A stretch of 64,000 bases of DNA, from assembly GCF_965641715.1 (NCBI RefSeq), contig NZ_OZ282453.1. One strand, 5' to 3'. The stretch comes from Escherichia coli. GTDB lineage: Bacteria; Pseudomonadota; Gammaproteobacteria; Enterobacterales; Enterobacteriaceae. The notes beneath the pieces are model-generated. The model made no database searches and was not told where the DNA came from. It saw only the letters and a list, made by a program, of their open reading frames with translations. Below are positions 33,420-63,821 of the stretch, in pieces; position 1 is the first letter of the stretch; each line of letters opens with the position of its first letter. Made by a program: the position numbers and the translations under genes.

Positions 33420-34844
33420 TTACTGCATTAACAGGTAGATGGTGCTGTCGCCGCGCTGAATGTTCAGTGCCAGCACAGACGGTTTGCTGTCGAGAACTTT
33501 ACGCAGTTCAGCGATGTTTTTCACTGCCTGCTGGTTCGCGCCAATAATCACATCACCTTTCTTCAGGCCGATCTGCGCAGCCGGAGTGCCCGTTTTCACG
33601 TTGTTCACTACCACGCCCTGATCTTTGCCTTTGTTGCTCATCTCAGCACCTTCAATGCCGTTGAAGATGGAGCTGGAATCAACCTGATTCTGGCTGCTCT
33701 GCTGCAGTTCCAGATTCACGTTGACCTGCTTACCGTCGCGCAGCAAGCCCAGGGTCAGTTTGCTGCCCACCGGCATAGTACCCACCTGAGCACGCAGTGC
33801 GGCAAAGCTGCTGATCGGCTTACCGTTCAGTGAGGTGATCACATCACCCGCTTTAATGCCCGCTTTTGCAGCGGAGGAGTTAGGCAGAACCTGGCTTACG
33901 AAAGCACCGCGCTGGGCGTCAACTTTCATCGCTTTCGCCAGTTCGGAGTTCAGCTCAGTCCCCATAATACCCAGCTCACCGCGTTTCACCTGGCCGTATT
34001 CCACCATCTGCGAGGTCAGGTTTTTCACCATGTTGCTCGGGATAGCAAAACCGATACCGATGTTGCCGCCGTCCGGTGCGAGGATCGCGGTGTTGATACC
34101 GATCAGTTCGCCGTTCAGGTTAACCAGCGCACCACCGGAGTTACCACGGTTGATCGCTGCATCGGTCTGGATGAAGTTTTCGTAGTTTTCGGCATTCAGG
34201 CCGCTACGCCCCAGCGCAGAGACAATCCCGGAAGTTACCGTCTCGCCCAAACCAAACGGGTTACCAATCGCTACGGTGTAATCACCCACGCGCAGTGCAT
34301 CAGAATCCGCCATCTTAATTGCGGTCAAGTTTTTCGGGTTCTGGATTTGGATCAGCGCGATATCAGAGCGCGGATCTTTGCCAACCATCTTCGCGTCGAA
34401 CTTACGGCCATCGCTCAGTTGAACTTTAATGACCGTCGCGTTATCAACAACGTGGTTGTTGGTGACGACATAGCCTTTATCGGCATCAATGATGACGCCG
34501 GAACCCAGCGCCATGAATTTCTGTTGCTGGCCGCCACCATTACCGCCCTGGCCACCCTGGCAGAACGGAGAGCTCTGGAACGGAGAACCTTCCTGGCAGA
34601 ACGGAGAATCATCACCGAAGAACTGCTGGAAATTACGCGGCATACGCGGCGTATTAACGGTTGTGCTACCTTCTACGTTAATGCTGACCACTGAAGGCAT
34701 CACCTTTTCGAGCATCGGTGCAAGGCTTGGCATCTGCTGGGCTGTCGTTGCTGAAGAAGTCTCAGCCGCCGTTGCAGAGAGCGGAGATAACGCCAAACCT
34801 AAACTCAGAGCCAGTGCACTCAGTGCTAATGTGGTTTTTTTCAT
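33420..34844 (-). CDS. degP: Periplasmic serine endoprotease/chaperone DegP (HtrA)
   Basis: 474 aa ORF, signal peptide, trypsin-like protease domain (GNSGG) and two PDZ domains. Confidence 0.97.
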   Translation of the reverse strand: MKKTTLALSALALSLGLALSPLSATAAETSSATTAQQMPSLAPMLEKVMPSVVSINVEGSTTVNTPRMPRNFQQFFGDDSPFCQEGSPFQSSPFCQGGQGGNGGGQQQKFMALGSGVIIDADKGYVVTNNHVVDNATVIKVQLSDGRKFDAKMVGKDPRSDIALIQIQNPKNLTAIKMADSDALRVGDYTVAIGNPFGLGETVTSGIVSALGRSGLNAENYENFIQTDAAINRGNSGGALVNLNGELIGINTAILAPDGGNIGIGFAIPSNMVKNLTSQMVEYGQVKRGELGIMGTELNSELAKAMKVDAQRGAFVSQVLPNSSAAKAGIKAGDVITSLNGKPISSFAALRAQVGTMPVGSKLTLGLLRDGKQVNVNLELQQSSQNQVDSSSIFNGIEGAEMSNKGKDQGVVVNNVKTGTPAAQIGLKKGDVIIGANQQAVKNIAELRKVLDSKPSVLALNIQRGDSTIYLLMQ

Positions 34845-34885
34845 GTATTTCAGTCTCGATTAACAGATAACGCAAAATTGCTGTG

Positions 34886-42129: not shown

Positions 42130-42162
42130 TTTTGCCTCGCCCACCGGGCGAGGCATTTTATT
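42130..42162 (+). terminator. Rho-independent terminator downstream of hemL
   Basis: gcctcgccc acc gggcgaggc stem followed by attttatt. Confidence 0.65.
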
Positions 42163-44143
42163 AACGGCTCTGCTTTCTCAACAAATAGATAAAATATGGC
42201 GCGCCGATAAAGGTCGACAGCAGCCCCGCCGGGATCTGGAACGGAAACAGCACCATCCGCCCACACCAGTCAGCGAACACCAGCAGTAAACCACCCACCA
42301 GCGCCGAAATCACGATGTGCGGCATCGTCCGTCGAAAGCCCATCATCCGCGCGATATGCGGTGCCATTAAACCAACAAAACTCAACGGTCCAATGGTCAT
42401 CGTCGCGGTCGCCGTCAGGCAAGCCGCTAACAGCAGCAGCGCAATTCGCGTCGGCGTTAACGCCACCCCCACGGCCCGCGCGGTATCACCACCCAGCGGT
42501 AAAATGGTCAGCCAGCGGCGGCACAGCGGGGTAATCGCCAGCAAAATCACCATCACAATTCCGGTGCGCCAGACCTGCGCATCGGTGGCGTTGTAGGTCG
42601 AACCAGAGATCCAGGTCAGCACTTGCGCCATTCGCGGGTCACCACTCGCCTGCAACATCATTAAAAGCATGGTGAATGCGGTACTTAACGCCATCCCCGC
42701 CAGTAACATGCGGTGTGGGGAAAATCCACCGCGCCCGGCGGCGATCATAATAATCAACAGCGTCACCGCCGCCCCGATACTGCCCGCGGGTAACAGCCAG
42801 CCAAAAGCATTACCCGGTACCAGAAACAGCATCAGTACCACGCCAAACGCTGCGCCGGAGCTAATCCCCAGCACTTCCGGGCTTGCCATCGGGTTGCCGG
42901 TCAGTCGCTGAATAATACAGCCCGCCACCGCCAGCATGACGCCCGCAAATAGCGCCGCCATAATTCGCGGCCAGCGCCAGGGCATTAAATCATCGAGCAA
43001 CGCCCCGCTCGCCCACGTCCAGCCGTGCGCATCACGACCAAACGACAGCGCCACCACCACAGCCATCAACAGCAGCACGCCGCCCGCGAGGGCAAACGCC
43101 AGCACATGTTGGCGTTCAGCCGCGACACGATCGTTGACCTTCATATCCGGCGCGCTAATGCTGCGTAAACGCGGCAGCAACCACAGTAGCAGCGGCGCAC
43201 CGATCAACGCAGTGACCGAACCGGTGGACACTTCCATCCACACGCGAGTCAGCCAGAGGATGATTTGATCGGAAAGCCAGAGGATCAGCGCACCAATCAG
43301 CGACGCCAGCATCAACCGTGGCAGCAGACGCCGCGCCCCCAGCATTTTTGCCAGCAGCGGCGCGAACAACCCGATAAAGCCGATAATCCCCACAGCGTTC
43401 ACCAGCAGCGCACTGATGACAATCGCCAGCGACAGCGCCGCCAGACGCGCGAGCGACAAGGCCAGCCCGAGATTGCGCGCCACGCCATCATCAAGCCCCA
43501 TCAGGGTTAACGGACGAAGTAGCAGCAACGTCAGCATCACACCGCCCAGCAACTGCGGCCATAAACGCTCAACACCGCCCCAGTCGGTTTGCGTCAGCGT
43601 TCCGGTGCTCCACAGGAACATGCTTTGCAGTTGGTCATGGTGGAAGATAACCAGTAACTGATTGATTGCCCCACAATAAAGGCTCACTACCAGCCCCGCG
43701 AGGATCAGAGTTACCGGCGACAGCCGTTTCCCCCACGCGACGCCAAAGACAATTAAGCCAACAACGCAAGCCCCTGCCAGCGCAGCAAACTGGCTCGCCA
43801 TAGCACCTGGGATCGCCCAGAGCGTAGTGACGGTAATCCCCAGTTGCGCGCCTGTTGCAACGCCCAACGTCGTCGGTTCCGCCAGCGGGTTACGCAGCAC
43901 TTGCTGAAACAGCACGCCCACCAGCCCCAGGCCTGCGCCCACCAGCAGCGAAATCGCCAGACGCGGCAGCAAGCTGTAGTGAAAAATCATCTGCTCGATG
44001 ACGTCAATATCCGGCGACCAGGCAGCCTGCGCCCACTGGCTACGCGGCAGCGCCTGCGAGAAGTTCATCCAGGTCAGCGCCGTAGCGGCAATCACCAGCA
44101 ACGCCAGCAATAATGCCGGGAAAAGCGCAATACGTTTACTCAC
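42161..44143 (-). CDS. fhuB: Ferric hydroxamate ABC transporter permease FhuB
   Basis: 660 aa ORF, duplicated FecCD-type permease. Confidence 0.96.
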   Translation of the reverse strand: MSKRIALFPALLLALLVIAATALTWMNFSQALPRSQWAQAAWSPDIDVIEQMIFHYSLLPRLAISLLVGAGLGLVGVLFQQVLRNPLAEPTTLGVATGAQLGITVTTLWAIPGAMASQFAALAGACVVGLIVFGVAWGKRLSPVTLILAGLVVSLYCGAINQLLVIFHHDQLQSMFLWSTGTLTQTDWGGVERLWPQLLGGVMLTLLLLRPLTLMGLDDGVARNLGLALSLARLAALSLAIVISALLVNAVGIIGFIGLFAPLLAKMLGARRLLPRLMLASLIGALILWLSDQIILWLTRVWMEVSTGSVTALIGAPLLLWLLPRLRSISAPDMKVNDRVAAERQHVLAFALAGGVLLLMAVVVALSFGRDAHGWTWASGALLDDLMPWRWPRIMAALFAGVMLAVAGCIIQRLTGNPMASPEVLGISSGAAFGVVLMLFLVPGNAFGWLLPAGSIGAAVTLLIIMIAAGRGGFSPHRMLLAGMALSTAFTMLLMMLQASGDPRMAQVLTWISGSTYNATDAQVWRTGIVMVILLAITPLCRRWLTILPLGGDTARAVGVALTPTRIALLLLAACLTATATMTIGPLSFVGLMAPHIARMMGFRRTMPHIVISALVGGLLLVFADWCGRMVLFPFQIPAGLLSTFIGAPYFIYLLRKQSR

Positions 44144-45030
44144 GCTTTACCTCCAATGGCGTTATCCAGAACGCGCACAAAGTGCATTGCCGAGAGCGTT
44201 GCACCATAAAACCAGACTGCGGGTACGCGCTGAAAGCGTCCGGCGCGGACAAACGGCATGGCCTGCCACAGCGGCGTTGCCATTAGCGCATCCATGTCTT
44301 TGCTGTTGTCGTGATCAAAACAGAGCACATCAACGTCTTTATACGCTGCCAGACGATCGATGCTGACGGCGGTACTGCCCCAGAAGTTGGTTTCCCCTTG
44401 CCAGGCATTTGGGATGCCGTACTCATCAAGAATTTCCTGGAACAAGCTGTTTGGACCGAAGACCAGCATATGGCGCGGATCGATAAGCGTCGTCAGCAAT
44501 AACGGACGCGCACCACGCTTCACAAAGCGGGGTTTCATGCTGCGGATAAAGTCTTCATATTGCGCTAAATGCGTTTCTGCTGCGCTTTGCAGGTTAAGTA
44601 AATCCGCCATTTCCGTCAGCGATTTACGCGCCATCGCCAGCGGCTGTTTGCCGTCGCTGAAGTTAAATCCACGCCCCGGCGCAATACGAGCCAGCATTTC
44701 TGGTGAAGGGCCATATCCTGCCGACCAGACCATAAACGACGGTTTCATTTCGGTCAGCAGTTCGAGGTTAGGTTCTGTACGCAAACCAACGTCAATCACT
44801 GAGTCCGGCAATGGTGGTTCGCTGACCCACAGGCGATAGTTGATGGTATCCGCCACGCCGTAAGGCACGATGCCGAGCGCCAGCAGTAATTCCACCGGCA
44901 ACCACTCCAGCGCCACAATACGATTGGGATCAATAGCCGCCGCGTGGGCGGTATTCATCTGCCATAACAACGGAGAAAGCGCCATCGCCGTTAACAGTCG
45001 ACGGCGCGAAATAAGAGGTAAGCCGCTCAT
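44140..45030 (-). CDS. fhuD: Ferric hydroxamate periplasmic binding protein FhuD
   Basis: 296 aa from MSGLPLISRRRLL... (Tat-like RRR signal); overlaps fhuB start and fhuC stop. Confidence 0.95.
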   Translation of the reverse strand: MSGLPLISRRRLLTAMALSPLLWQMNTAHAAAIDPNRIVALEWLPVELLLALGIVPYGVADTINYRLWVSEPPLPDSVIDVGLRTEPNLELLTEMKPSFMVWSAGYGPSPEMLARIAPGRGFNFSDGKQPLAMARKSLTEMADLLNLQSAAETHLAQYEDFIRSMKPRFVKRGARPLLLTTLIDPRHMLVFGPNSLFQEILDEYGIPNAWQGETNFWGSTAVSIDRLAAYKDVDVLCFDHDNSKDMDALMATPLWQAMPFVRAGRFQRVPAVWFYGATLSAMHFVRVLDNAIGGKA

Positions 45031-45827
45031 CAATAAACAAAACTCACAGGTGCAGCACCTGCCGGATGCGGCAAAATACCCATCGGGATGCCATAAATCA
45101 TTTCGAGGGTTTCGCCGCGCATAATTTCCGCAGGCGTTCCCTGAGCAATCATTTCACCGCCGCGCAGGGCGACCAGATAATCACAGTAGCGTGCCGCCAT
45201 ATTGATATCGTGCAGCACGGCAATGACCGTCAGACCACGTTCCTGACTTAAACGATGCACCAGCGCCAGCACATCAACCTGGTGGGCGATATCCAGCGCC
45301 GAGGTTGGCTCGTCGAGCAACAGACAACGGCTATCCTGCGCCACCAGCATGGCGATCCACGCCCGCTGACGTTCGCCGCCAGAGAGGCTATCGACCAGCC
45401 GATGCGCCAGCGGTTTTAAGCCAACCAGCGAGATAGCTTCCTCAACTTTTTCGCGATCTGCCGCACCAAAGCGCCCTAGTGCGCCATGCCACGGGTAACG
45501 ACCAATCGCCACCAGTTCACGCACGGTCATCCCTTCTGCCGGAGGAAGCTGCTGCGGTAAATAAGCCACTTTGCGGGCAAACGCTTTGCTGCTCCAGCTT
45601 TCCAGCGGCTGGGCATCAAGAAGAATCTCCCCTTCCGACGGCGGCTGATGACGGCCAAGCATTTTGAGCAGAGTGGATTTACCAGAACCGTTGTGACCAA
45701 TCAGACCGGTCACTTTCCCGGCAGGAAAGGTTAACGACAGCGGATGCAAAAGCGTGCGCCCGGGCACACGAAAGGAGATATTACGCAGTGCAAAAGTGGT
45801 ATCGGAATGATTCGTGTATTCCTGCAT
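45030..45827 (-). CDS. fhuC: Ferric hydroxamate ABC transporter ATPase FhuC
   Basis: 265 aa from MQEYTNHSD...; Walker A GHNGSGKST and ABC signature LSGGERQR. Confidence 0.95.
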   Translation of the reverse strand: MQEYTNHSDTTFALRNISFRVPGRTLLHPLSLTFPAGKVTGLIGHNGSGKSTLLKMLGRHQPPSEGEILLDAQPLESWSSKAFARKVAYLPQQLPPAEGMTVRELVAIGRYPWHGALGRFGAADREKVEEAISLVGLKPLAHRLVDSLSGGERQRAWIAMLVAQDSRCLLLDEPTSALDIAHQVDVLALVHRLSQERGLTVIAVLHDINMAARYCDYLVALRGGEMIAQGTPAEIMRGETLEMIYGIPMGILPHPAGAAPVSFVY

Positions 45828-45877
45828 AACAGCCAACTTGTGAAACGGGCACGGAAATCCGTGCCCCAAAAGAGAAA

Positions 45878-47387
45878 TTAGAAACGGAAGGTTGCGGTTG
45901 CAACGACCTGACGTTCTGCGCCCCAGAAGCAGCCATAAGTGTTAAAGCAGCTGGCGACGTATTCACGATCGAACAGGTTGTTGACATGCAGCGCCACGTT
46001 GGAGCCCGCCATGCCGACTCGCGCCAGATCATAACGCACTAACGCATCCACGACCGTATAACTTCCCACTTTAAAGGAGTTAGCCGGATCACCATAGCTG
46101 GAGCCAGTATAACGACCACCGGTGCCCAGCGTCAGACCTGAAAGCGGACCGTCAAAGAAGGTATAGTCAGCCCACAGCGAAGCCATGTGTTTTGGCACCT
46201 GTGCCGGCGTATTGCCTTTATAGGTAGTATCGGTGGTGTATTCCGCATCGGTGTAAGTATAAGAACCGACTACGTTAACACTCGCCGACAGCGCCGCTTT
46301 CGCTTCGATTTCTACGCCACGTGCGCGGATCTCGCCACCTTCAACCGAGAAGAAGGAACCCTCAGGGTCCGCCATCAGGTTGTTGGTTTTAGTGAGATTA
46401 TACACGGCACCAGTAACTACAATCGGACGATCTTCCGGTACATATTTCACGCCGACTTCATACTGCTTACCTTTAGACGGTGCGAAAATATTACCATCCT
46501 TCCCAACTTGCGAAGAAGGTTCAAACGATTCGCTATAGCTGAAGTAAGGTGTTACGCCATTATCAAACAGGTAGTTAACACCACCACGCCAGGTAAACTG
46601 TTTGTCATCGCGTTTATCGGTCGTCGCGGCAACGCGGTTAAGAGATTCTTGATCTGCCCAGTCGTAACGACCGCCCAGGGTGACCAGCACTTTATCCCAC
46701 TGCGCCTGATCCTGAACATAAACGCCCGTTTGTTTCTGCTTATTCAGAATGCGGTAAGGGCCGGAGTTTGCCGGATCTTTGGCATTGAAGTCGAAATCGG
46801 TATTCACCGGATTGTACAGATCGAGCAGCGGTACGGAGTCGTCGTAACCAAACCAAGCGTTGATGTCATTACGCATACGCATAAAGTCGACACCGGTCAG
46901 CAGGGTGTGGTCGATATCGCCAGTGGCAAACTTGCTCTGCAACTGGGTATCAACGGAGAAGTTTTGCAGCTTCTCATCATCAACGACGTATTTACGTGCC
47001 AGATAATGGCCTTTATCCGCTGGCGCTAATGCCGCACACTGTTTGCTGTAAGCATTCGCCGGATCGGAGCAGACGCCGTAACCATAAACGCTGTTTTGCG
47101 AGGTTTTGTTTTCAGCAAAGCGCAGGTTCTGACGCACAGTAAAGGTGTCGTTAAATTCGTGATCGAAGCTGTAGCCCACCATCTTCTCATTACGAGAATA
47201 GGTGTTGTTCTTCGCCCCTTCGTTAAAGTCTGTCGGCAGACGCTTACCGTTCGGCAGCGGCTCAACGGTTCCCTCTTTCGGCAACCAGCCGTAATAACCC
47301 GTTTCCGATGCCGCTAACCGCTGTGGCTACTACAACTGCGATTTTACGCAGTGAGTGTTTTGGCTGAGCAGTTTTGGAACGCGCCAT
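45878..47387 (-). pseudogene. fhuA: fhuA (tonA) ferrichrome TonB-dependent receptor, inactivated by an out-of-frame internal deletion
   Basis: ATG at 47387 encodes MARSKTAQPKHSLRKIAVVVATAVSG (FhuA signal-peptide start) then shifts frame and stops after about 39 codons; a different frame from ~47284 down to 45878 encodes the C-terminal ~468 residues of the FhuA barrel ending ATFRF; junction near 47308. Confidence 0.85.
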
Positions 47388-47410
47388 TGGTATATCTCTG
47401 ATGTAAAGTG

Positions 47411-47452
47411 AATGATAACGTAAACGAGAATGATTATTATAAAGATAAGATA
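47411..47452 (-). promoter_or_regulatory. Fur box / fhuA promoter region
   Basis: gaatgataacgtaaacgagaatgattattataaagataagataat contains overlapping GATAAT/ATCATT hexamers resembling the Fur consensus, directly upstream of the fhuA start. Confidence 0.55.
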
Positions 47453-47561
47453 ATATTCGAAACGCTGGCGGGTTCGCAAGCGGTACGCAATCTGAGCGTT
47501 CCTGAAGGGTTAATAAACAACCAGATGAAAAGAAAGGGTTAATACTTTGGGTGGGATGTTA

Positions 47562-47592
47562 TTTTACCGGATGGCAACTCGCCATCCGGTAT
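47562..47592. repeat. REP-like palindrome downstream of mrcB
   Basis: accggatggc aactc gccatccggt inverted repeat. Confidence 0.45.
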
Positions 47593-47606
47593 TTCACGCT
47601 TAGATG

Positions 47607-50141
47607 TTAATTACTACCAAACATATCCTTAATCCAACCGGCTACACCGTCGCTATCTTTCTGCTCTTGCTGAGCAGGTTGCTGTTGCGGCTGTTGCTGC
47701 GGCTGTGAAGACTGATCAAACGGGTTGCCTGACGGCTGCTGCTGCATCTCACTCTGCTGGCACAGCGATTGCGGATCGCTGGTCCAGACCGGCAAGACAC
47801 GCATGCCACCGCTGCAAACAAAGTTGCCGTCGTAGTCCACGCCCATATCTGCAATATCTTCTGGCGGAACAAGATTCAGCGGCGTTGGCGTCTGGTTAGC
47901 CAGATAACGCTGATAAATCGACATTGCCCCGCTGGCACCATACAGTTTGGTCGGCTGGTTGTTATCACGGCCTACCCAGGTGATGGTCACCGTGCTGCCG
48001 TCAATGCCCGCAAACCAGGTATCTACGTTATTGTTGGTAGTCCCTGTTTTCCCTGCCAGATGCAGGTTCGGGTATTTCGCCCCAAGCTGACGACCCGTAC
48101 CACGTTGTACCACCTGCTGCATGGTCCATAGTGTCAGATACGCCGCCTGCGCCGGAACAGCGCGTTCCGCCTGCGGGAAGCTCTGATACAGCACTTTGCC
48201 ATCTTCCGCGATTACCGAACGCAGCGCAGAAAGCGGTGCACGGTTACCGCCGCTGGCGATGGTCTGGAATGCCTGCGCCACTTCGATTGGCGTTAAGTTC
48301 AACGCCCCCAGCAGCATCGCCGGAACCGGATGCAGCTGATCTTTCGGCACGCCCAGTTTAATCCAGGTATCCGTAACCGCAGGCAGCCCCAGCGCCATCC
48401 CCAGATTTACCGTCGGCACGTTCATCGAACGGGTCAACGCATCCACCAGCATCACTCTGCCGCTTTCGCTATAACGACGGTCATCGTTCTGCGGTGACCA
48501 GACCTGGCCATTCGGCTGACGTAGCGCGATTGGCGCATCCGCAATCCACGTATTCAGACGATAGATTTTCGGCTGGCTTAAGGCCGTCAGATAAGTCGCT
48601 GGTTTTGCAAGGGAACCAATCGAACGACGCGCCTGCATCGCACGGTTGTAGCCCGCAAACTGCGGCTCAGAACCTCCGACCATCGCACGAACTTCACCAC
48701 TAAAGCGGTCGACGACCACAATCGCGGTTTCCAGATCGCTCAGCTTACGCTGTTTCTTAAGTGCCGGAATGCCTTCCACGGCGGCTTTTTCTGCCGCGTC
48801 CTGGGCCACCGAGTCAAAGGTAGTGAAGATCTTCACGCCGGAGAGATCTTTTACCTTATCGCCTAATTTAGCCTGAAGCTCCTGACGCACCAGTTGCATA
48901 AAGGCTGGCTGAGGAGAGATCACCCCACCGCGCGGCTGAACACCCAGCGGACGCGCACTCAACATGTCATAGAGTTCTTGATCAATAATCTGTTGCTGTT
49001 GCAGCAGACGCAGTACCAGATTACGTCGCTCCAGCGCCAGTTTCGGGTTACGCCACGGGTTGTAGATGGACGCTCCTTTCACCATACCGACTAACAGCGC
49101 CTGTTGATCGAGGCTCAATTCTTCTACCGGGCGACCAAAGTAATACAAGCTCGCCAGCGGGAAGCCGCGGATTTCGTTGTCGCCGCTCTGACCGAGATAC
49201 ACCTCGTTCATATACAGCTCAAGAATACGGTCTTTGCTGTAACGCGCGTCCATGATCAGCGCCATGTAAGCTTCGTTCGCTTTACGCCAGTAAGAGCGCT
49301 CGCTGGAGAGGAACAGGTTTTTCACCAGCTGTTGCGTCAGCGTACTCGCCCCCTGCACCGTGCGTCCGGCTGTCAGGTTTGCCAGCACCGCACGTCCGAT
49401 GGAGTAGAGACTGATTCCATCATGCTCGTAGAAATGGCGGTCTTCTGTCGCCAGCAAAGTATCCACCAGCAAATCCGGGAAACCACTGCGCGGCACAAAC
49501 AAACGCTGCTCACCGTTTGGTGAGGAGATCATGGTGATCAGACGCGGATCAAGACGGAAGAAACCGAACTGACGGTTGTTCTCCATATTGACGATCGTCG
49601 CCAAATGATCGCCATCAAAGGTCAGACGCGCGCGCACCTGTCCTTCTTTACTGTCCGGGAAATCAAACGGACGGCGAATCATCTCAATGCTGTTGGCCTG
49701 CACGGTAAATTCGCCAGGACGGGTCATTTTTGACACCTGACGATACTGGGTTGCCTCCAGCAGCTTCACCATTTCGTTCTTGCTGATGGTCATGTCTGGC
49801 TCAAGGTTGACCATTCGACCATAAACTGCCGCAGGCAGTTGCCAGACCTTGCCATCAATACGGCTACGAATTTTTTGATCGAGATAAACGCCGTAAATGG
49901 CGATCAGCACGGCAAAAACGATAGCCAGTTTTAACAGCAGCCATAGCCAGCCGCGTTTGCCACGAGGCTTACGCCCTTTGCCTTTGCCCTTACCTTTGCG
50001 CGGCATCGGTTCTTCATCCTCATAGTCATCATAATCGTCGTAATCATCGTCATCTTCGTAACGACGACGGCTTACCTTTTGTTTGACCGGACGCGTCGGT
50101 TTCCCTTTGCGTCCAATTGGCTCGCGGTCATTCCCGGCCAT
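47607..50141 (-). CDS. mrcB: Penicillin-binding protein 1B (bifunctional glycosyltransferase/transpeptidase)
   Basis: 844 aa from [15 protein letters not shown]...; acidic [15 protein letters not shown] and (KG)n N-terminal tract, TM helix, SxxK transpeptidase domain. Confidence 0.96.
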
Positions 50142-50235
50142 GCTTTTTCTCCGCAATATTCAGGCGCAAAAGCCCGATTTTCTGTTCTTCTGTTGCAAGA
50201 CAGAAGAAGATATCTCTCAAAATTTGAGCTCGATC

Positions 50236-50330
50236 GGTCCCCTCTCCCTTAAGGGAGAGGGTTAGGGTGAGGGTGAACGTGCGCGCTGATGCCCTCACCC
50301 CGGCCCTCTCCCACAGGGAGAGGGAGAAAA
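50236..50330. repeat. Box C-type compound palindromic intergenic repeat
   Basis: ccctctccc ttaa gggagaggg; gggtgagggtgaa ... gccctcaccc; ccctctccc aca gggagaggg: three nested inverted repeats in 95 bp between the hrpB stop and mrcB start. Confidence 0.7.
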
Positions 50331-50336
50331 CCAACC

Positions 50337-52766
50337 TTACGAATACTTTTTCGTCCGTCGCGTCGGTGCCGTGTTTGCCGGGTCGTCCGGCCAGACGTGT
50401 TTGGGATAACGCCCTTTCATCTCCTTTTGCACCTCACGATACGCCCCTTTCCAGAAGGCCCCCAAATCACGCGTGATTTGCAGCGGCCTTTGGGCAGGGG
50501 AAAGCAACTCCAGCACCAGCGGCACGCGCCCCTGGGCGATCGTCGGATTGGTGGCCTCACCAAACATCTCCTGCATTCTCACCGCCAGCGCGGGCGGGTT
50601 ATCTTCATGATAACGAATGGCGATCCGGCTTCCCGTCGGCACAGTGTAATGCGCAGGCAATTCACTATCCAGACGTTGCTGCATTCCCCAATCAAGTAAT
50701 CCGCGTAGTGCCTGATAAATGTCGAGTGATTTCAGGCCGCGTAGTGAATGTACACCGGCCATATGTGGCAGCAGCCACGTTTCCAGCGTCGCCAACAAAC
50801 TTTCATCATCAACCGCTGGCCAGTCATATTCTGGCAACCACTTTCCGGCGCATAACAAACGCAAGCGTAGCTGTTCCGCTTCCGCCGTCCAGTTGAGCAC
50901 GCTTAAACCTTTATCACGGATGCCGTTAAGCATCGCCTGATGCAACTCGTCTTCTGACGGTTTCGCCAACGGCTGCACTTTCACCGTCAACTGACCGATT
51001 TGCAGCCGACGCCAGGCTTTCAGCGTACCTTGCGCGTCATCCCATTCCACGGTGTCAGATTGCTGCACCAGCTGCGGACAGCGTCGCACTAATTCATCAA
51101 TATCGACCGGTAGCGCCAGTAAAATCCGCGCATCCGGCGAGGCGCTGCCCTGCAATAATAACGGTGCGATCAACCATTCGTGGCGGCTTAGCGCGTCGTC
51201 GGCATCGAGCATCGCTCCCATGCCGTTTGCCAGTTGATAGCGTCCATCTTGCCCACGGCGGCGAGCAATGCGATCGGCAAACGCCCCGGCAAGTAGCGGC
51301 GCGATAAGCGAACTGTCTGCCTCACCGCCGCGTACGTTTAAGCGTTTTAACAGTTGCTGACTACGTTGCTGCCAGGCTGGTTGATTGCGCGAAAACGCCA
51401 CGCCCAGGTCACTATTGCCCATCCGTGGCGGCTCTTCGAGAATGGCGGCAATTTTTGCCGCGGTAGCAGCTTCGTCGTCGCTCTTTGCGCTAACCAGCAT
51501 TGCCGCTAAACGCGGATCGTTACCCAGCGCTGCCATTTTTTGCCCCTGCGCACTAAGCCGTTCACCGTCCAGCGCCCCCAGCATCTTTAACAGGCGTTTC
51601 GCGGCCAGTAAATTCACTGCTGGCGGTTGATCCAGCCAGCTCATCTGCGCCGGATCGCTGCATCCCCATTGCAGTAATTCCATCAACAAACCGGAAAGAT
51701 CGCTTTGTAATATTTCCGGTTCACTTTGCGCCGCGGCGCGTTCTGCTTGTTCCTTGGCGATTAAATGCAGGCAGATACCCGGCTCCAGACGCCCGGCGCG
51801 CCCGGCACGCTGCGTCATCGACGCCTGACTGATTCGCTGAGTAATCAACCGCGTAAGCCCTGTTCGCGGATCAAAACGCGCCACCCTTTCCTGGGCACAA
51901 TCCACCACCAGACGAATACCTTCGATGGTTAAACTGGTTTCAGCAATATTGGTCGCCAGCACCACTTTGCGCATCCCTTGCGGTGCCGGGAGGATCGCTT
52001 TTCGCTGATCGTTCAGCGACAACGCGCCATACAGCGGGCAGAGCAACACATCACTGCCGATGCGCGAAGCCAGTTGTTCCTGCACACGCTGAATTTCTCC
52101 GACGCCAGGTAAAAATAACAGTAATGATCCACTTTCCTGACGCAGCATTTCGGCGGTGGCAACCGCGACGGCTTCGTCAAAACGCTGATGCGCGGGCAGC
52201 GGTAAATAACGGCGTTCAACCGGAAACGAGCGCCCTTCTGAGATGACGACGGGCGCTTCTGGCAGCATTTGCTGCAAGCGGTCGTTATCCAGCGTAGCCG
52301 ACATAATCAGCAGTTTAAGGTCATCACGCAGACCTTGTTGCACATCGAGTAACAGCGCCAACGCCAAATCCGCCTGCAAGCTGCGCTCATGAAATTCATC
52401 AAGGATCACCAGTCCAACACCGCTCAGTTCCGGGTCACGCTGGATCATCCGCGTCAGCACGCCTTCGGTAACCACTTCCAGGCGGGTATTCGGCCCGACG
52501 CAGTTTTGCGCACGCATCCGGTAGCCAACGGTATCGCCTGGCTTTTCGTTAAGCAGCTCCGCCAGCCGTTGCGCGACGTTACGCGCCGCCAGACGCCGTG
52601 GCTCCAGCAGGATAATTTTCCCGTTAATGCCGGGATGCGCCAGCAGTTGCAGCGGCAGCCAGGTTGATTTCCCGGCCCCGGTCGGCGCACTTAATAATAC
52701 CTGCGGCGCACAATCGAGAGCGGTAAGTAATTCAGGTAAGACGGCAGCAACGGGCAACGACGACAC
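50337..52766 (-). CDS. hrpB: ATP-dependent RNA helicase HrpB (DEAH-box)
   Basis: ORF 50337..52811; probable GTG start giving ~809 aa; Walker A APTGAGKST and DEFH motif. Confidence 0.92.
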   Translation of the reverse strand: MSSLPVAAVLPELLTALDCAPQVLLSAPTGAGKSTWLPLQLLAHPGINGKIILLEPRRLAARNVAQRLAELLNEKPGDTVGYRMRAQNCVGPNTRLEVVTEGVLTRMIQRDPELSGVGLVILDEFHERSLQADLALALLLDVQQGLRDDLKLLIMSATLDNDRLQQMLPEAPVVISEGRSFPVERRYLPLPAHQRFDEAVAVATAEMLRQESGSLLLFLPGVGEIQRVQEQLASRIGSDVLLCPLYGALSLNDQRKAILPAPQGMRKVVLATNIAETSLTIEGIRLVVDCAQERVARFDPRTGLTRLITQRISQASMTQRAGRAGRLEPGICLHLIAKEQAERAAAQSEPEILQSDLSGLLMELLQWGCSDPAQMSWLDQPPAVNLLAAKRLLKMLGALDGERLSAQGQKMAALGNDPRLAAMLVSAKSDDEAATAAKIAAILEEPPRMGNSDLGVAFSRNQPAWQQRSQQLLKRLNVRGGEADSSLIAPLLAGAFADRIARRRGQDGRYQLANGMGAMLDADDALSRHEWLIAPLLLQGSASPDARILLALPVDIDELVRRCPQLVQQSDTVEWDDAQGTLKAWRRLQIGQLTVKVQPLAKPSEDELHQAMLNGIRDKGLSVLNWTAEAEQLRLRLLCAGKWLPEYDWPAVDDESLLATLETWLLPHMAGVHSLRGLKSLDIYQALRGLLDWGMQQRLDSELPAHYTVPTGSRIAIRYHEDNPPALAVRMQEMFGEATNPTIAQGRVPLVLELLSPAQRPLQITRDLGAFWKGAYREVQKEMKGRYPKHVWPDDPANTAPTRRTKKYS

Positions 52767-52839
52767 AAAACGCTCCAGAGGGTTAACATTCTTCGCGCCA
52801 CATTGTAGCATCGCGGTAATTCATAACCGAGTGCCTCAC

Positions 52840-54089
<1,250 letters not shown>

Positions 54090-54266
54090 TAAAGTAAGTA
54101 ACTGGTTAATTTACATTCTGGTCGCGTGCGCAAATACGCTTTTCCTCACACAGTTGTCAAGTGTTACGTTTAGATAATTGCTATCCGGAAAAGCATCTGC
54201 TATTTATAGCGGCCTCATTTTTCCCCCGAACATGGGGATCGATAGTGCGTGTTAAGGAGAAGCAAC

Positions 54267-54722
54267 ATGCAAGAAGGGCAAAACCGTAAAACATCGTCCC
54301 TGAGTATTCTCGCCATCGCTGGGGTGGAACCATATCAGGAGAAGCCGGGCGAAGAGTATATGAATGAAGCCCAGCTGGCGCACTTCCGTCGTATTCTGGA
54401 AGCATGGCGTAATCAACTCAGGGATGAAGTCGATCGCACCGTTACACATATGCAGGATGAAGCAGCCAACTTCCCGGACCCGGTAGACCGTGCAGCCCAG
54501 GAAGAAGAGTTCAGCCTCGAACTGCGTAACCGCGATCGCGAGCGTAAGCTGATCAAAAAGATCGAGAAGACGCTGAAAAAAGTGGAAGACGAAGATTTCG
54601 GCTACTGTGAATCCTGCGGTGTTGAAATTGGTATTCGCCGTCTGGAAGCGCGCCCGACAGCCGATCTGTGCATCGACTGCAAAACGCTGGCTGAAATTCG
54701 CGAAAAACAGATGGCTGGCTAA
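54267..54722 (+). CDS. dksA: RNA polymerase-binding transcription factor DksA
   Basis: 151 aa from [19 protein letters not shown]...; C4 zinc finger [25 protein letters not shown]. Confidence 0.96.
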
Positions 54723-54748
54723 TTACAGCCGTTCCATCACGTTTACCA

Positions 54749-54780
54749 CAGGCGGGAAATGCTCCCGCCTTATTTTTTGT
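54749..54780 (+). terminator. Rho-independent terminator downstream of dksA
   Basis: ggcggga aatgc tcccgcc perfect 7-bp stem followed by ttattttttgt. Confidence 0.8.
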
Positions 54781-54788
54781 TCAAAGAG

Positions 54789-55685
54789 ATGACAGACACA
54801 CACTATATTGGCCGCTTCGCCCCCTCTCCTTCCGGCGAGCTTCATTTTGGTTCTCTGATTGCTGCGCTTGGCAGCTATTTGCAGGCTCGCGCCCGGCAAG
54901 GTCGCTGGCTGGTACGCATAGAAGATATCGACCCGCCTCGTGAAGTTCCCGGTGCCGCAGAAACTATCCTGCGCCAGCTGGAACATTACGGCCTGCACTG
55001 GGACGGCGATGTTCTCTGGCAATCGCAACGTCACCACGCCTATCGCGAAGCACTCGCCTGGTTACATGAGCAAGGACTAAGTTATTACTGCACCTGCACG
55101 CGTGCACGTATTCAAAGCATTGGCGGTATTTACGACGGCCATTGCCGGGAATTGCATCATGGACCAGGCAACGCCGCAGTGCGTATCCGCCAGCAGCATC
55201 CGGTCACCCAGTTTACTGACCTGCTGCGCGGCATTATTCACGCCGACGAAAAACTGGCACGGGAAGATTTTATTATTCATCGCCGTGATGGTTTGTTTGC
55301 CTATAACCTGGCGGTGGTGGTCGATGATCACTTCCAGGGCGTGAGCGAAATTGTCCGCGGGGCAGATTTGATCGAACCGACAGTGCGGCAAATCTCGCTG
55401 TACCAGCTTTTTGGCTGGAAAGTGCCAGATTACATTCATCTGCCGCTGGCGCTTAATCCACAAGGCGCTAAACTTTCCAAGCAGAATCATGCGCCTGCGT
55501 TGCCGAAAGGCGATCCACGCCCGGTACTAATCGCGGCACTTCAATTTCTGGGGCAGCAGGCAGAAGCACACTGGCAGGATTTCAGCGTCGAGCAAATCCT
55601 TCAGTCAGCCGTCAAAAACTGGCGGCTTACCGCAGTGCCTGAGTCGGCAATTGTAAATTCAACATTCTCAAATGCGTCATGCTGA
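54789..55685 (+). CDS. gluQ: Glutamyl-Q tRNA(Asp) synthetase (GluQ-RS, YadB)
   Basis: 298 aa from [23 protein letters not shown]... (class I aaRS HIGH-like motif); the ATG at 54759 lies inside the dksA terminator loop so the start is placed at 54789 behind aaagag SD. Confidence 0.9.
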
Positions 55686-55744
55686 GCTATGATTAGCCGC
55701 TATTTTTTTGTCCTGAATGATGTTTGACACTACCGAGGTGTACT

Positions 55745-57142
55745 ATTTTTACCCGAGTCGCTAATTTTTGCCGCAAGGTGCTAAGCCGCGAGGAAAGCGA
55801 GGCTGAACAGGCAGTCGCCCGTCCACAGGTGACGGTGATCCCGCGTGAGCAGCATGCTATTTCCCGCAAAGATATCAGTGAAAATGCCCTGAAGGTAATG
55901 TACAGGCTCAATAAAGCGGGATACGAAGCCTGGCTGGTTGGCGGCGGCGTGCGCGACCTGTTACTTGGCAAAAAGCCGAAAGACTTTGACGTAACCACTA
56001 ACGCCACGCCTGAGCAGGTGCGCAAACTGTTCCGTAACTGCCGCCTGGTGGGTCGCCGTTTCCGTCTGGCTCATGTGATGTTTGGCCCAGAGATTATCGA
56101 AGTTGCGACCTTCCGTGGACACCACGAAGGTAACGTCAGCGACCGCACGACCTCCCAACGCGGGCAAAACGGCATGTTGCTGCGCGACAACATTTTCGGC
56201 TCCATCGAAGAAGACGCCCAGCGCCGCGATTTCACTATCAACAGCCTGTATTACAGCGTAGCGGATTTTACCGTCCGTGATTACGTTGGCGGTATGAAGG
56301 ATCTGAAGGACGGCGTTATCCGTCTGATTGGTAACCCGGAAACGCGCTACCGTGAAGATCCGGTACGTATGCTGCGCGCGGTACGTTTTGCCGCCAAATT
56401 GGGTATGCGCATCAGCCCGGAAACCGCAGAACCGATCCCTCGCCTCGCTACCCTGCTGAACGATATCCCACCGGCACGCCTGTTTGAAGAATCGCTTAAA
56501 CTGCTACAAGCGGGCTACGGTTACGAAACCTATAAGCTGCTGTGTGAATATCATCTGTTCCAGCCACTGTTCCCGACCATTACCCGCTACTTCACGGAAA
56601 ATGGCGACAGCCCGATGGAGCGGATCATTGAGCAGGTACTGAAGAACACCGATACGCGTATTCATAACGATATGCGCGTTAACCCGGCGTTTTTGTTTGC
56701 CGCCATGTTCTGGTACCCACTGCTGGAGACGGCACAGAAGATCGCCCAGGAAAGCGGCCTGACCTATCACGACGCTTTCGCGCTGGCGATGAACGACGTG
56801 CTGGACGAAGCCTGCCGTTCACTGGCAATCCCGAAACGTCTGACGACGTTAACCCGCGATATCTGGCAGTTGCAGTTGCGTATGTCCCGACGTCAGGGTA
56901 AACGTGCATGGAAACTGCTGGAGCATCCTAAGTTCCGTGCGGCTTATGACCTGTTGGCCTTGCGAGCTGAAGTTGAACGTAACGCTGAACTGCAGCGTCT
57001 GGTGAAATGGTGGGGTGAGTTCCAGGTTTCCGCGCCACCAGACCAAAAAGGGATGCTCAACGAGCTGGATGAAGAACCGTCACCGCGTCGCCGTACTCGT
57101 CGTCCACGCAAACGCGCACCGCGTCGTGAGGGTACCGCATGA
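55745..57142 (+). CDS. pcnB: Poly(A) polymerase I
   Basis: ORF open from stop at 55718; no in-frame ATG before the conserved N-terminus; ATT at 55745 preceded by gaggtg SD is taken as the start (literature-reported AUU start), TTG at 55724 is the alternative; 465 aa. Confidence 0.9.
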
Positions 57143-57618
57143 CAGTGGCGTATATTGCCATAGGCAGCAATCTGGCCTCTCCGCTGGAGCAGGTCAATGC
57201 TGCCCTGAAAGCATTAGGCGATATCCCTGAAAGCCACATTCTTACCGTTTCTTCGTTTTACCGCACCCCACCGCTGGGGCCGCAAGATCAACCCGATTAC
57301 TTAAACGCAGCCGTGGCGCTGGAAACCTCTCTTGCACCTGAAGAGCTACTCAATCACACACAGCGTATTGAATTGCAGCAAGGTCGCGTCCGTAAAGCTG
57401 AACGCTGGGGACCGCGCACGCTGGATCTCGACATCATGCTGTTTGGTAATGAAGTGATAAATACTGAACGACTGACCGTACCGCACTACGATATGAAAAA
57501 TCGTGGATTTATGCTGTGGCCGCTGTTTGAAATCGCGCCAGAGTTGGTGTTTCCTGATGGGGAAACATTACGTGAAATACTCACTTCACTAGCAGTACCA
57601 CAACCTGCCATCTGGTAA
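57139..57618 (+). CDS. folK: 2-amino-4-hydroxy-6-hydroxymethyldihydropteridine pyrophosphokinase
   Basis: 159 aa ORF ([19 protein letters not shown]...); 4-nt overlap with pcnB. Confidence 0.96.
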
Positions 57619-57960
57619 TAGCTGTATTATTTTATTTTCTTGACGAGAGGAATACAAAATGATACGGCTATTTCATCCACCAAGAAAAAATTATTTTCTT
57701 ATCTTACTCCTCACATCCCCCCTTACACATTAAATATACTTAATTTACATTTTAGTTTTTTTTAATTCATTCATGAAATAGCATTTCATGCAAATAGATT
57801 AGGCATTTTTTGTTTAAACGACCTAAAATAACAACAATTCAATACGCCACATAAATATATTCACACCCGTGATAATTCACCCCTATTACATCCTCCAAAA
57901 ACTTTGAGTAATATCCGCTCGCAATATTAATTTCATATAATTTTTGTAAGGATGCATGTA
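57619..57960. promoter_or_regulatory. AT-rich upstream regulatory region of the yadN fimbrial operon
   Basis: ~340 bp strongly AT-rich with A/T tracts, typical of nucleoid-protein-silenced fimbrial promoters. Confidence 0.5.
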
Positions 57961-58557
57961 ATGAAAAAAGCACTTCTCGCAGCCGCTCTGGTTATGGCTT
58001 CTGGTTCCGCCCTGGCTGTAGATGGTGGTCATATCGACTTTAACGGTATGGTACAGTCCGGTACCTGTAAAGTGGGTGTGGTAGATACTGGTATGCACAG
58101 CGTTACCACTGATGGCGTGGTTACCCTGGATACTGCGAATGTTACTGATACTTTTGCTGAAGTTAGCGCAACTGCTGTCGGTTTACTGCCGAAAGAGTTC
58201 ATGATTTCTGTTGAGTGTGATCCAGGTGCTCCGAAGAATGCTGAGTTAACTATGGGTTCTGCAAGCTACGCGAACACCAGCGGTACCCTGAATAACAATA
58301 TGAACATCACTGTTAACGGTATTGCACCGGCTCAGAACGTAAACATTGCAGTTCATAACATGAAAAACAAAGCTGGCGCTGCTGAAATTAAGCAGGTCCA
58401 TATGAACAACTCTTCTGAAGTTCAGGAACTGACATTAGACGCAGAAGGTAAAGGCCAGTACGTATTTAACGCATCTTACGTTAAAGCACCGAACAGCCCG
58501 GCTGTAACTGCTGGTCATGTAACCACTAACGCGCTGTACACCATTGCTTATAAGTAA
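57961..58557 (+). CDS. yadN: Fimbrial major subunit-like protein YadN
   Basis: signal peptide MKKALLAAALVMASGSALA; type-1 pilin-like with Cys pair and C-terminal ...YTIAYK. Confidence 0.88.
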   Translation: MKKALLAAALVMASGSALAVDGGHIDFNGMVQSGTCKVGVVDTGMHSVTTDGVVTLDTANVTDTFAEVSATAVGLLPKEFMISVECDPGAPKNAELTMGSASYANTSGTLNNNMNITVNGIAPAQNVNIAVHNMKNKAGAAEIKQVHMNNSSEVQELTLDAEGKGQYVFNASYVKAPNSPAVTAGHVTTNALYTIAYK

Positions 58558-58637
58558 TTGATGGTGTGTTGAGCATAAGGTTTGCCAGCAGGCAAACCTT
58601 ATTTTCGCGAATTTAATCTTTCTACAGACAGCAAGGA

Positions 58638-59369
58638 GTGCTTATGTTTCCCTTGGTTAAAAAAACGGTTAGTGCATTATTTGTGAGTACTCTGTTAGCC
58701 AGTGCACCAGCATTCGCTGACATTATTATTTCCGGAACACGTATCATTTATAACGCTGATAAAAAAGATGTTAACGTTCGTCTGGAAAATAAAGGGAATC
58801 GCCCCTTACTGATTCAGAACTGGTTGGATACTGGCGACGACAATGCCGATCCCAGCCAGATCAAAGTGCCGTTTACCGCGACCCCACCAGTTTCACGCGT
58901 GGAGCCAAAACGCGGTCAAACCGTAAAAGTGATGTATACCGGTGCAACAGCCCTGCCGAAAGACCGTGAAAGCGTCTACTGGTTTAACGTGCTGGAAGTG
59001 CCGCCTAAGCCGAAAGATGCTGAGGCTGACAAAAACTTGTTACAGCTGGCTTTCCGCACACGCATCAAACTCTTTTATCGCCCGAGTGGGTTACAGGGAG
59101 AACCGGCTGAAGCACCGGCGAAAATCACCTGGAAATTAAACAACGCTCAGTTACAGGCAAATAACCCAACGCCATATTACGTGTCCTTTAATGAGGTCAA
59201 GCTGGAAAGCGGCGGCAAAACCTACAACGTCAATTCCAGCATGGTCGCGCCGTTCAGCCAGGCAAGCTTTGGCGTAACCGGTCTGCCAGGAAGCGTGTCA
59301 TCCGGAAAAGTGGTTTTTAAAGCGATCAACGACTTTGGCGGCAACATTGATGGTTCCGCAACATTCTAA
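58638..59369 (+). CDS. yadV: Periplasmic pilus chaperone (YadV/EcpD)
   Basis: 243 aa ORF with signal peptide and PapD-like features. Confidence 0.88.
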   Translation: MLMFPLVKKTVSALFVSTLLASAPAFADIIISGTRIIYNADKKDVNVRLENKGNRPLLIQNWLDTGDDNADPSQIKVPFTATPPVSRVEPKRGQTVKVMYTGATALPKDRESVYWFNVLEVPPKPKDAEADKNLLQLAFRTRIKLFYRPSGLQGEPAEAPAKITWKLNNAQLQANNPTPYYVSFNEVKLESGGKTYNVNSSMVAPFSQASFGVTGLPGSVSSGKVVFKAINDFGGNIDGSATF

Positions 59370-59410
59370 AAAATAAACGGATTCTTTTTAACATCGCCAG
59401 GAATGCAACC

Positions 59411-62011
59411 TTGTACCAGTTTACTCATCAAAAAAGCCGTATCCCGAAAAAAACGCTACTTGCGGCCTGTTGCGCCCTTTTTTACAGCGGCAACAGTTCT
59501 GCGGCGGACACCGTGGAATATGACAGTTCCTTCTTAATGGGAACTGGCGCATCAACGATTGATGTTAAACGTTATGCTCAAGGCAACCCGACACCGCCGG
59601 GTCTCTATAATGTCCGCGTGTTTGTAAACGGCCAGCCCACGTCCAGCTTAGAAATTCCGTTTGTGGATATTGGCGAAAACAGCGCAGCGGCCTGTATTAC
59701 CCACAAAAACCTGGCACAACTTCACATTAAGCAACCTGAACAGCCTGTCACTTTACTCGCCAGAGAAGGTGAGGAAGAGGATTGTCTGGATTTGGCAAAG
59801 TCATACGAAAAGGCGGATGTGCGCTTTGACGGTAGTGACCAGTTTCTCGATCTGACGATCCCTCAGGCCTATGTTTTGAAAAGCTATGGCGGCTACGTTG
59901 ACCCTTCTTTATGGGAATCGGGAATTAACGCTGCCACACTGGCATATACCCTGAACGCGTATCACACAAGTTCAGATAACGATAATAGTGACAGCGTCTA
60001 TGGCGCATTTAACTCGGGTATCAATTTAGGAGCCTGGCACTTCCGTGCGCGCGGTAACTATAACTGGACAACAGATAACGGCAGCGATTTCGATTTCCAG
60101 GATCGTTACTTACAGCGTGACATTCCGGCAATCCGTTCACAGATAATTATGGGTGACGCCTACACCACCGGTGAAACGTTTGACTCTGTCAACGTCCGTG
60201 GTGTTCGCCTGTACAGCGATAGCCGTATGCTACCTTCGGCGCTGGCCAGTTACGCCCCGACCATCCGCGGTGTAGCAAACTCCAACGCCAAAGTTACGGT
60301 GACGCAGAACGGTTATAAAATCTATGAAACTACCGTTCCACCCGGTGAATTTGTTATAGACGACATTAGCCCCTCCGGCTTTGGTAGCGAACTGGTCGTA
60401 ACCATTGAAGAAGCGGATGGTTCCAAACGCACCTTTACGCAACCCTTCTCGTCGGTTGTGCAAATGCAACGTCCTGGTGTAGGTCGTTGGGATTTCAGTG
60501 CCGGTAAAGTCATTGATGATAGCCTGCGTTCCGAACCCAATATGGGGCAAGCCTCTTATTACTATGGTCTGAATAACCTCTTCACGGGTTATACCGGCAT
60601 TCAGTTCACCGATAACAACTATCTTGCCGGGCTGTTAGGTGTGGGTATCAACACCAGCATCGGCGCCTTTGCGGTAGACGTTACCCATTCTCGCGCTGAG
60701 ATTCCGGATGATAAAACTTACCAGGGGCAAAGTTATCGCGTGACCTGGAACAAATTATTCCAGGATACCGGGACATCATTTAACCTCGCGGCGTACCGCT
60801 ATTCCACCCAGGATTATCTGGGCCTGCATGATGCGTTAGTCCTCATTGACGACGCCAAACATTTGTCTGCCGATGAAGACAAAAACACCATGCAGACGTA
60901 CTCACGTATGAAAAACCAGTTTACCGTCAGCATCAACCAGCCGCTGAAAACGACTTACGAAGATTACGGTTCACTGTTTATTTCCGGTAGCTGGACGGAT
61001 TACTGGGCGGCGAACAATAGCCGCACTGAATATAATGTTGGTTACAGTAAAAGCGTTTCGTGGGGCAGTTTCAGCGTCAACCTGCAACGTAGCTGGAATG
61101 AAGACGGCGAGAAAGATGACGCGATGTACGTCAGCGTTAGCGTACCTATTGAGAATATTTTAGGTGGCAAACGCAAATCTTCTGGTTTCCGCAATTTAAA
61201 TACTCAGCTCAATACCGATTTCGATGGTTCACATCAGTTGAATGTTAACAGTTCCGGTAACACTGAAAACAATCTGGTGAACTACAGTGTCAACGCAGGT
61301 TATAGCCTCGATAAAAACTCCGGCGATTTAGCCTCTGTTGGTGGTTATCTCAACTATGAATCAGGGTTAGGCGGTATTTCCGCTTCGGCCTCGGCCACTT
61401 CTGATAATAGCCAGCAGTACTCCATCTCCACCGATGGCGGCTTTGTATTACACAGTGGTGGTTTAACGTTCACTAACAACAGTTTCAGCAGTAACGACAC
61501 ACTGGTGTTAATCAACGCCCCAGGTGCTAAAGGCGCACGAATCAATAACAGTAATAACGAAATCGATCGCTGGGGATATGCCGTGACATCTTCTGTCAGC
61601 CCCTACCGTGAAAACCGGGTAGGTCTGAACATTGAAACACTGGAAAACGATGTTGAACTGAAAAGTACCAGCGCCACCACCGTACCACGCAGCGGCTCCG
61701 TTGTTTTGACCCGTTTCGAAACTGACGAGGGGCGTTCTGCCGTGCTGAATATTACTGCCGCCAATGGCAAATCTATTCCGTTTGCTGCGGAGGTTTACCA
61801 GGGTGAGGTGATGATCGGCAGCATGGGCCAGGGTGGTCAGGCATTTGTGCGCGGTATTAACGACAGCGGGGAATTAACAGTGCGTTGGTATGAAAACAAC
61901 CAAACCATTGACTGTAAGTTGCACTACCAGTTCCCAGCCCAGCCACAAACGCTGGGAAGTACCAACACCTTATTACTTAACAATCTTACCTGTCAGGTAG
62001 CAAATCACTAA
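59411..62011 (+). CDS. htrE: Outer-membrane fimbrial usher HtrE
   Basis: 866 aa ORF (tool start is TTG), usher-family barrel; exact start uncertain. Confidence 0.9.
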   Translation: MYQFTHQKSRIPKKTLLAACCALFYSGNSSAADTVEYDSSFLMGTGASTIDVKRYAQGNPTPPGLYNVRVFVNGQPTSSLEIPFVDIGENSAAACITHKNLAQLHIKQPEQPVTLLAREGEEEDCLDLAKSYEKADVRFDGSDQFLDLTIPQAYVLKSYGGYVDPSLWESGINAATLAYTLNAYHTSSDNDNSDSVYGAFNSGINLGAWHFRARGNYNWTTDNGSDFDFQDRYLQRDIPAIRSQIIMGDAYTTGETFDSVNVRGVRLYSDSRMLPSALASYAPTIRGVANSNAKVTVTQNGYKIYETTVPPGEFVIDDISPSGFGSELVVTIEEADGSKRTFTQPFSSVVQMQRPGVGRWDFSAGKVIDDSLRSEPNMGQASYYYGLNNLFTGYTGIQFTDNNYLAGLLGVGINTSIGAFAVDVTHSRAEIPDDKTYQGQSYRVTWNKLFQDTGTSFNLAAYRYSTQDYLGLHDALVLIDDAKHLSADEDKNTMQTYSRMKNQFTVSINQPLKTTYEDYGSLFISGSWTDYWAANNSRTEYNVGYSKSVSWGSFSVNLQRSWNEDGEKDDAMYVSVSVPIENILGGKRKSSGFRNLNTQLNTDFDGSHQLNVNSSGNTENNLVNYSVNAGYSLDKNSGDLASVGGYLNYESGLGGISASASATSDNSQQYSISTDGGFVLHSGGLTFTNNSFSSNDTLVLINAPGAKGARINNSNNEIDRWGYAVTSSVSPYRENRVGLNIETLENDVELKSTSATTVPRSGSVVLTRFETDEGRSAVLNITAANGKSIPFAAEVYQGEVMIGSMGQGGQAFVRGINDSGELTVRWYENNQTIDCKLHYQFPAQPQTLGSTNTLLLNNLTCQVANH

Positions 62012-62012
62012 T

Positions 62013-62573: not shown

Positions 62574-62587
62574 CAGGGACAGCCACC

Positions 62588-63199: not shown

Positions 63200-63219
63200 T
63201 AGCGGATAAGGATATTAGA

Positions 63220-63810: not shown

Positions 63811-63821
63811 TAAGGATAATT

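Follow-up and report, generated by a model that had tools for sequence, protein, structure and literature searches.

By its sequence, the fhuA gene of the 64-kb window (the whole stretch of Escherichia coli DNA analysed here) is a null deletion pseudogene. The best explanation as a whole, which we hold to be very probable, is a real, recent and spontaneous deletion in a wild lineage that left the cell FhuA-null, with selection by a phage or a bacteriocin as the most likely cause.

Anatomy of the fhuA deletion

The fhuA gene is encoded on the minus strand and starts at window position 47387 (ATG). The base-level alignment with the intact fhuA genes of EC1515 (L001) and of the public assembly L026 (GCA_003721895.1) showed a single 734-bp deletion: nucleotides 81-814 of the coding sequence are gone, nucleotides 1-80 and 815-2244 are kept, and no bases are inserted. 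The earlier note on this DNA had described an internal deletion of about 730 bp, not a multiple of 3, that spares the start codon and the first ~26 codons. The alignment with the wild-type gene that it proposed indeed gave one gap, placed exactly after nucleotide 80, and the frame is shifted. The 5' remnant (47308..47387, minus strand) comprises codons 1-26 and the first 2 nt of codon 27, which make up most of the signal peptide, and is 100% identical to L026 and EC1515 up to ...GCGGCAT. The 3' remnant (45878..47307, minus strand; 1,430 nt) is out of frame with the start codon and encodes residues 273-747 and the stop codon, corresponding to the barrel from mature residue 240 to the C-terminal ATFRF. 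The retained parts show 99.9% nucleotide identity to fhuA of EC1515 and 100% identity to that of L026 on both sides of the gap. As the 3' remnant has 0 differences from L026 over 1,490 bp, there is no secondary decay of the remaining gene. When the region 45828..47606 was compared with 5,426 complete E. coli genomes using megablast, it always matched in two pieces, with the span in the record 734 bp longer than in the query.

At the junction (47307..47308, minus strand), nucleotide 80 is joined to nucleotide 815 in GGCAT/CGGAAAC, the break falling after GGCAT, with 0 filler bases and 0 bp of microhomology. The slipped-strand test, in which a repeat or microhomology common to both breakpoints was looked for, thus gave 0 bp. 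No direct repeat of at least 6 bp and no inverted repeat within 20 bp of either breakpoint was found, and the longest word common to the 20-bp breakpoint neighbourhoods is 5 nt long and out of register. An explanation of the breakpoints by repeats or hairpins was therefore rejected. Neither an FRT or lox scar nor an insertion sequence (IS) is present at the junction. Spontaneous slipped-strand deletions in E. coli do not usually lack microhomology altogether, and a simple event of this kind fits poorly because the junction is blunt and without homology. Topoisomerase-type illegitimate recombination and the imprecise loss of a transient insertion are possible molecular routes.

The open reading frame (ORF) map and the translation show what the deletion has left of the coding capacity. 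The frameshifted residual ORF (47262..47387, minus strand) consists of 26 native codons, MARSKTAQPKHSLRKIAVVVATAVSG, and 15 out-of-frame codons, IGNGLLRLVAERGNR, followed by TGA. The out-of-frame join and the early stop had been recognised correctly in the earlier note, but the peptide is 41 residues long and not about 39. This 41-aa junction peptide has no exact match among the called proteins of a 15-billion-protein collection. The second frame (45878..47314) reads ...ETGYYGWLPKEG...VVATATFRF*. Its longest startable ORF begins with TTG, spans 45878..47284 and encodes 468 aa without a signal peptide, and the product of the C-terminal remnant matches PF00593 only. In the same frame, two stop codons occur 7 codons upstream of the junction and close it, and for this reason the signal peptide cannot be fused to the barrel remnant. 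The ~1.4 kb said to encode the C-terminus of FhuA up to ATFRF does so, yet the ~468 residues given for it are those of the startable ORF, the remaining codons numbering 475 (273-747).

In the intact 747-aa FhuA, the Pfam domains map to residues 76-180 (Plug) and 254-716 (barrel), and residue 1 of the mature chain in PDB 1by3 corresponds to precursor residue 34. The deleted precursor residues 27-272 include the last 7 residues of the signal peptide together with the cleavage site, the TonB box, the whole plug and the barrel up to mature position 239. This bears out the previous claim that the signal-peptidase junction, the plug and the first barrel strands have been removed. A functional FhuA would be recognised by a frame of ~747 codons with a signal peptide, the TonB box, Plug (PF07715) and a 22-strand barrel (PF00593); here, the ORF stops at codon 42. 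Since the barrel-coding remnant lacks an in-frame start bearing a signal peptide, we infer that the cell makes no outer-membrane FhuA.

Flanking genes and lineage of the window

The order mrcB-fhuA-fhuC-fhuD-fhuB matches the annotated wild-type loci in EC1515 and MG1655, and all the neighbours of fhuA, lying on the same minus strand, are intact. Upstream, mrcB (47607..50141) encodes 844 aa, and its exact protein is very common in E. coli. Downstream, fhuC (45030..45827; 265 aa) follows the fhuA stop at the native spacing of 50 bp, and fhuD (44140..45030; 296 aa) is next; both proteins are identical to those of L026. The fhuB gene (42161..44143; 660 aa) is full length and has the consensus Pro at residue 112, where L026 has a private Leu. 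The intactness of fhuCDB and the native fhuA-fhuC spacing, both reported previously, thus agree with the wild-type relatives.

The 219-bp mrcB-fhuA intergenic region (47388..47606, minus strand) holds the native fhuA promoter and the iron-regulated control region. All 219 bp are identical to EC1515 and L026, so that the distance from the mrcB stop to the fhuA ATG is native, as had been noted. Compared with K-12, the spacer has 4 SNPs, all of them distal, just past the mrcB terminator hairpin. A sigma-70-like site was found at 47479..47450, and the search for the 19-bp Fur consensus with at most 3 mismatches gave 0 matches within the window. The description of the fhuA promoter as intact is therefore based on its wild-type identity and on one sigma-70-like site.

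From mrcB to fhuB, the window shows 97.6-98.0% identity to K-12 MG1655 and NEB 5-alpha. The best matches among the 5,426 complete E. coli genomes reach 99.0-99.4% and are all wild isolates, namely O55:H7, O157:H7, O169:H41, baboon strain A30, river strain KTa005 and TUM13936. As the nearest complete genomes include O157:H7 and O55:H7, Shigella was considered too. Shigella dysenteriae or another decaying Shigella was rejected: neither an ORF the size of an IS transposase nor a second broken gene is present in the 64 kb, and the near-identical relatives are fhuA-intact.

The lineage was located by exact-protein look-ups, in which the usher protein (71 blocks) led to L018 (GCA_013689095.1) and HrpB led to L026. 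MrcB was dropped as a lineage marker as it is too common (36,222 blocks). Between the window and L026, whose 747-codon fhuA is intact, there are 2 SNPs in 21,696 bp. L018 represents a further 19 similar assemblies, and its comparison with the window over 14,590 bp also gave 2 SNPs. In public assemblies with 99.99% identity to the window, fhuA is intact, and the distance to the nearest intact relatives is ~1 SNP per 10 kb. The variant positions noted are L026:19692 (fhuB codon 112) and window 55139 and 50175. The FhuB change P112L is private to L026, and a synonymous GGC/GGT difference in gluQRS separates the window from both L026 and L018. The deletion strain is therefore not directly descended from any of the relatives sampled. 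As near-identical L026 has an intact fhuA and the 3' remnant is without differences, the deletion is, on the comparisons made here, a recent event within a naturally sampled, wild, non-K-12, non-B E. coli lineage.

Occurrence and origin of the allele

The Logan assembly of ERR14867472 matches the window without any difference (100%) over 14,439 bp, the junction included. In all, the deletion allele was seen on ~3 contigs: one NCBI contig (5,159,857 bp), the ERR14867472 contig, which is common to 2 samples, and one similar place. All of the records carrying it could come from one strain. A junction 35-mer gave 0 matches to the JGI metagenome contigs, 0 of the 5,426 complete genomes (laboratory strains included) matched a 101-bp query across the junction, and no mention of a 734-bp fhuA deletion was found in the searchable literature. 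This fhuA allele is previously uncatalogued, and its kind is very well known.

An artefact of sequencing or assembly, such as a collapsed or mis-joined contig, could in principle imitate a deletion of this kind. The independent ERR14867472 assembly reproduces the junction exactly, which rules out an artefact of a single assembly, and that contig occurs in 2 samples. Furthermore, both flanks are collinear with the wild type and the breakpoints have no collapse-prone repeat. We therefore regard an artefact as extremely unlikely. Neither a full-length ~747-codon frame nor a misassembled junction was found, the two observations which the earlier note had set against its own reading. That reading took the broken fhuA as the mark of a domesticated or engineered strain, that is, as a deliberate T1-resistance (tonA/fhuA) marker of a cloning or expression strain. 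Indeed, commercial T1-resistant strains are made to have the phenotype predicted here, and the lesion combines a clean junction with an intact promoter. However, the backbone is only 97.6-98.0% identical to K-12 and NEB 5-alpha, with its best matches among wild isolates, and the 99.99%-identical assemblies, found in ~20 similar places in public assemblies, have an intact fhuA. A K-12, B or W laboratory backbone was not recognised: the laboratory strains aligned individually were MG1655 and NEB 5-alpha, and no genome in the set exceeds 99.4%. The lesion itself points the same way: no IS2 or IS10-type insertion and no designed deletion with a scar was found, the deletion is partial, out of frame and free of FRT or lox, and no complete genome spans its junction. 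The comparison with documented laboratory alleles, which had also been proposed, gave no match, those checked being IS insertions. NEB 5-alpha carries an IS4-like ISVsa5 insertion, and the NEB fhuA2 was rejected as the same allele on this ground; the allele of ER2796 is fhuA2::IS2, the classical fhuA2 (PMC4444293). These laboratory alleles inactivate the same gene with the same practical phenotype, but they are IS insertions in a K-12 backbone, whereas the window has an IS-free internal deletion in a backbone ~2% divergent from K-12. The interpretation as an engineered marker is thus largely refuted, and we consider it highly improbable. A broken fhuA alone does not identify a laboratory strain; here, the lineage is wild and its close relatives have the gene intact.

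FhuA is the receptor for ferrichrome, albomycin, the phages T1, T5 and phi80, colicin M and microcin J25. The FhuA-null phenotype expected in the earlier note, with the loss of the receptor for ferrichrome, albomycin, T1/T5/phi80 and colicin M, agrees with this established biology. A cell without FhuA would lose the uptake of ferrichrome and albomycin and would be resistant to T1, T5, phi80 and their relatives, to colicin M and to microcin J25. Such predicted resistance to T5-like and T1-like phages, colicin M, microcin J25 and albomycin matters when therapeutic phages or siderophore-conjugate antibiotics are to be chosen against this lineage. As the fhuA promoter and fhuCDB are intact, hydroxamate transport via other receptors would still be genetically possible. 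It should be noted that transcription from the fhuA promoter would continue into ~1.4 kb of untranslated RNA ahead of fhuC, and polarity may lower the expression of fhuCDB. A polar effect of fhuA frameshifts on fhuCDB has been discussed (bioRxiv 10.1101/320069).

Of the 5,426 complete genomes, 5,421 matched part or all of the plug-coding 734-bp segment and 5,308 contained no less than 80% of it at a single location, indicating that large losses in fhuA are rare. Five other fhuA null lesions, each giving the same 468-aa C-terminal ORF, were found in the public assemblies L031-L035 (Logan runs SRR29342803, SRR31140512, SRR18792150, SRR31899019 and SRR15409862). These lesions are W254* (TGG>TGA), the frameshift delG628, E192* (GAA>TAA), +2 nt after nt 706 and +16 nt after nt 707. 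L032, L033 and L034 are ~99.95% identical to each other downstream and carry three different fhuA lesions; their lineage differs from that of the window. This pattern points either to a single clone in which fhuA came under selection repeatedly or to a panel of resistant mutants. The recurrence of independent fhuA nulls fits recurrent selection on the receptor, and the window allele adds one case to the recurrent loss of fhuA in public genomes. The natural fhuA pseudogenes of Salmonella Typhi and of L031-L035 resemble it as natural inactivation by frameshift or nonsense mutation with fhuCDB present downstream. They differ in that they arose by 1-2-bp or 16-bp indels or nonsense changes, whereas the window lacks a 734-bp block with the whole plug. 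Classical spontaneous tonA/fhuA nulls (T1/T5-resistant, of the Luria-Delbruck type) affect the same gene, have the same predicted phenotype and retain fhuCDB; in contrast, the window allele is a 734-bp deletion in a non-K-12 wild lineage, unmatched in the 5,426 complete genomes and in the searchable literature.

The most likely driver of the loss would be selection by a phage or a bacteriocin that targets FhuA. We consider this the most economical cause because large losses are rare, fhuA is the sole broken gene in the window and fhuA nulls recur. The same three observations, together with the intact fhuA of the relatives, weigh against neutral decay, in which FhuA would have disappeared by chance once selection for ferrichrome uptake had relaxed, without any role of a phage or a bacteriocin. 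The precedent for such decay is the annotation of fhuA as a pseudogene in host-restricted lineages, e.g., S. Typhi (bioRxiv 10.1101/320069), and we judge it unlikely in the present case. If selection by a phage or a bacteriocin is accepted, the sequence cannot tell whether it took place in nature or while a wild isolate was being challenged with phage in the laboratory. An undesigned phage-resistant mutant of a wild isolate, selected in the laboratory (e.g., by a T5-like or T1-like challenge in a phage-therapy or receptor-mapping study), would agree with the occurrence of the allele on very few contigs, all 100% identical, with the absence of the junction from the JGI metagenome contigs and with the lack of secondary decay in the remnant. 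The three lesions of L032/L033/L034 are typical of resistant-mutant panels, though in a different lineage. On the other hand, nothing in the sequence separates laboratory from natural selection, the nearest intact relatives are ~1 SNP per 10 kb away with no immediate parent sampled, and the deletion was not found described in the searchable literature. We therefore take a laboratory-selected mutant to be a possible but rather doubtful origin. Selection by a phage or a bacteriocin in nature could also have given a naturally circulating FhuA-less subclone of this surveillance-sampled lineage, which would have escaped FhuA-dependent phages, colicin M or microcin J25 in the host and kept fhuCDB for hydroxamates taken up through IutA or FhuE. 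We put this forward tentatively, as a scenario with a real though minor chance of being correct. If true, it would show in the field how a receptor can be lost while the shared inner-membrane transporter is kept.

Other features of the window

The other large ORFs in the 64 kb are of the lengths expected for housekeeping genes. When window positions 30000-54000 were compared with the complete genomes, each of the best 25 listed matched in two pieces with the record span exceeding the query by 734 bp, the fhuA deletion alone accounting for this difference.

The hrpB-mrcB spacer (window 50157-50336) contains G+C-rich imperfect palindromic repeats (CTCTCCCTGTGGGAGAGGGCCGGGGTGAGGG...) that resemble boxC-type intergenic repeats and give rise to a spurious 68-aa ORF. 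The spacer shows a length polymorphism of 42-63 bp among strains, and the short-read contigs L034-L036 all break there. At window positions 58000-64000 lies a yad-type chaperone-usher fimbrial operon, which is a minority allele. The region 52000-64000 is covered to at least 80% in only 541 of 5,424 complete genomes, and the usher is IS-disrupted or split in several relatives (L013, L014 and L027-L029).

There are no tRNA genes in the 64-kb window. Three minus-strand matches reached the Rfam gathering score: naRNA4, a REP-derived nucleoid-associated RNA (572-648), the t44 RNA upstream of rpsB (26596-26682) and the HtrA (degP) 5' UTR thermometer (34839-34884). All three are standard for this chromosomal region.
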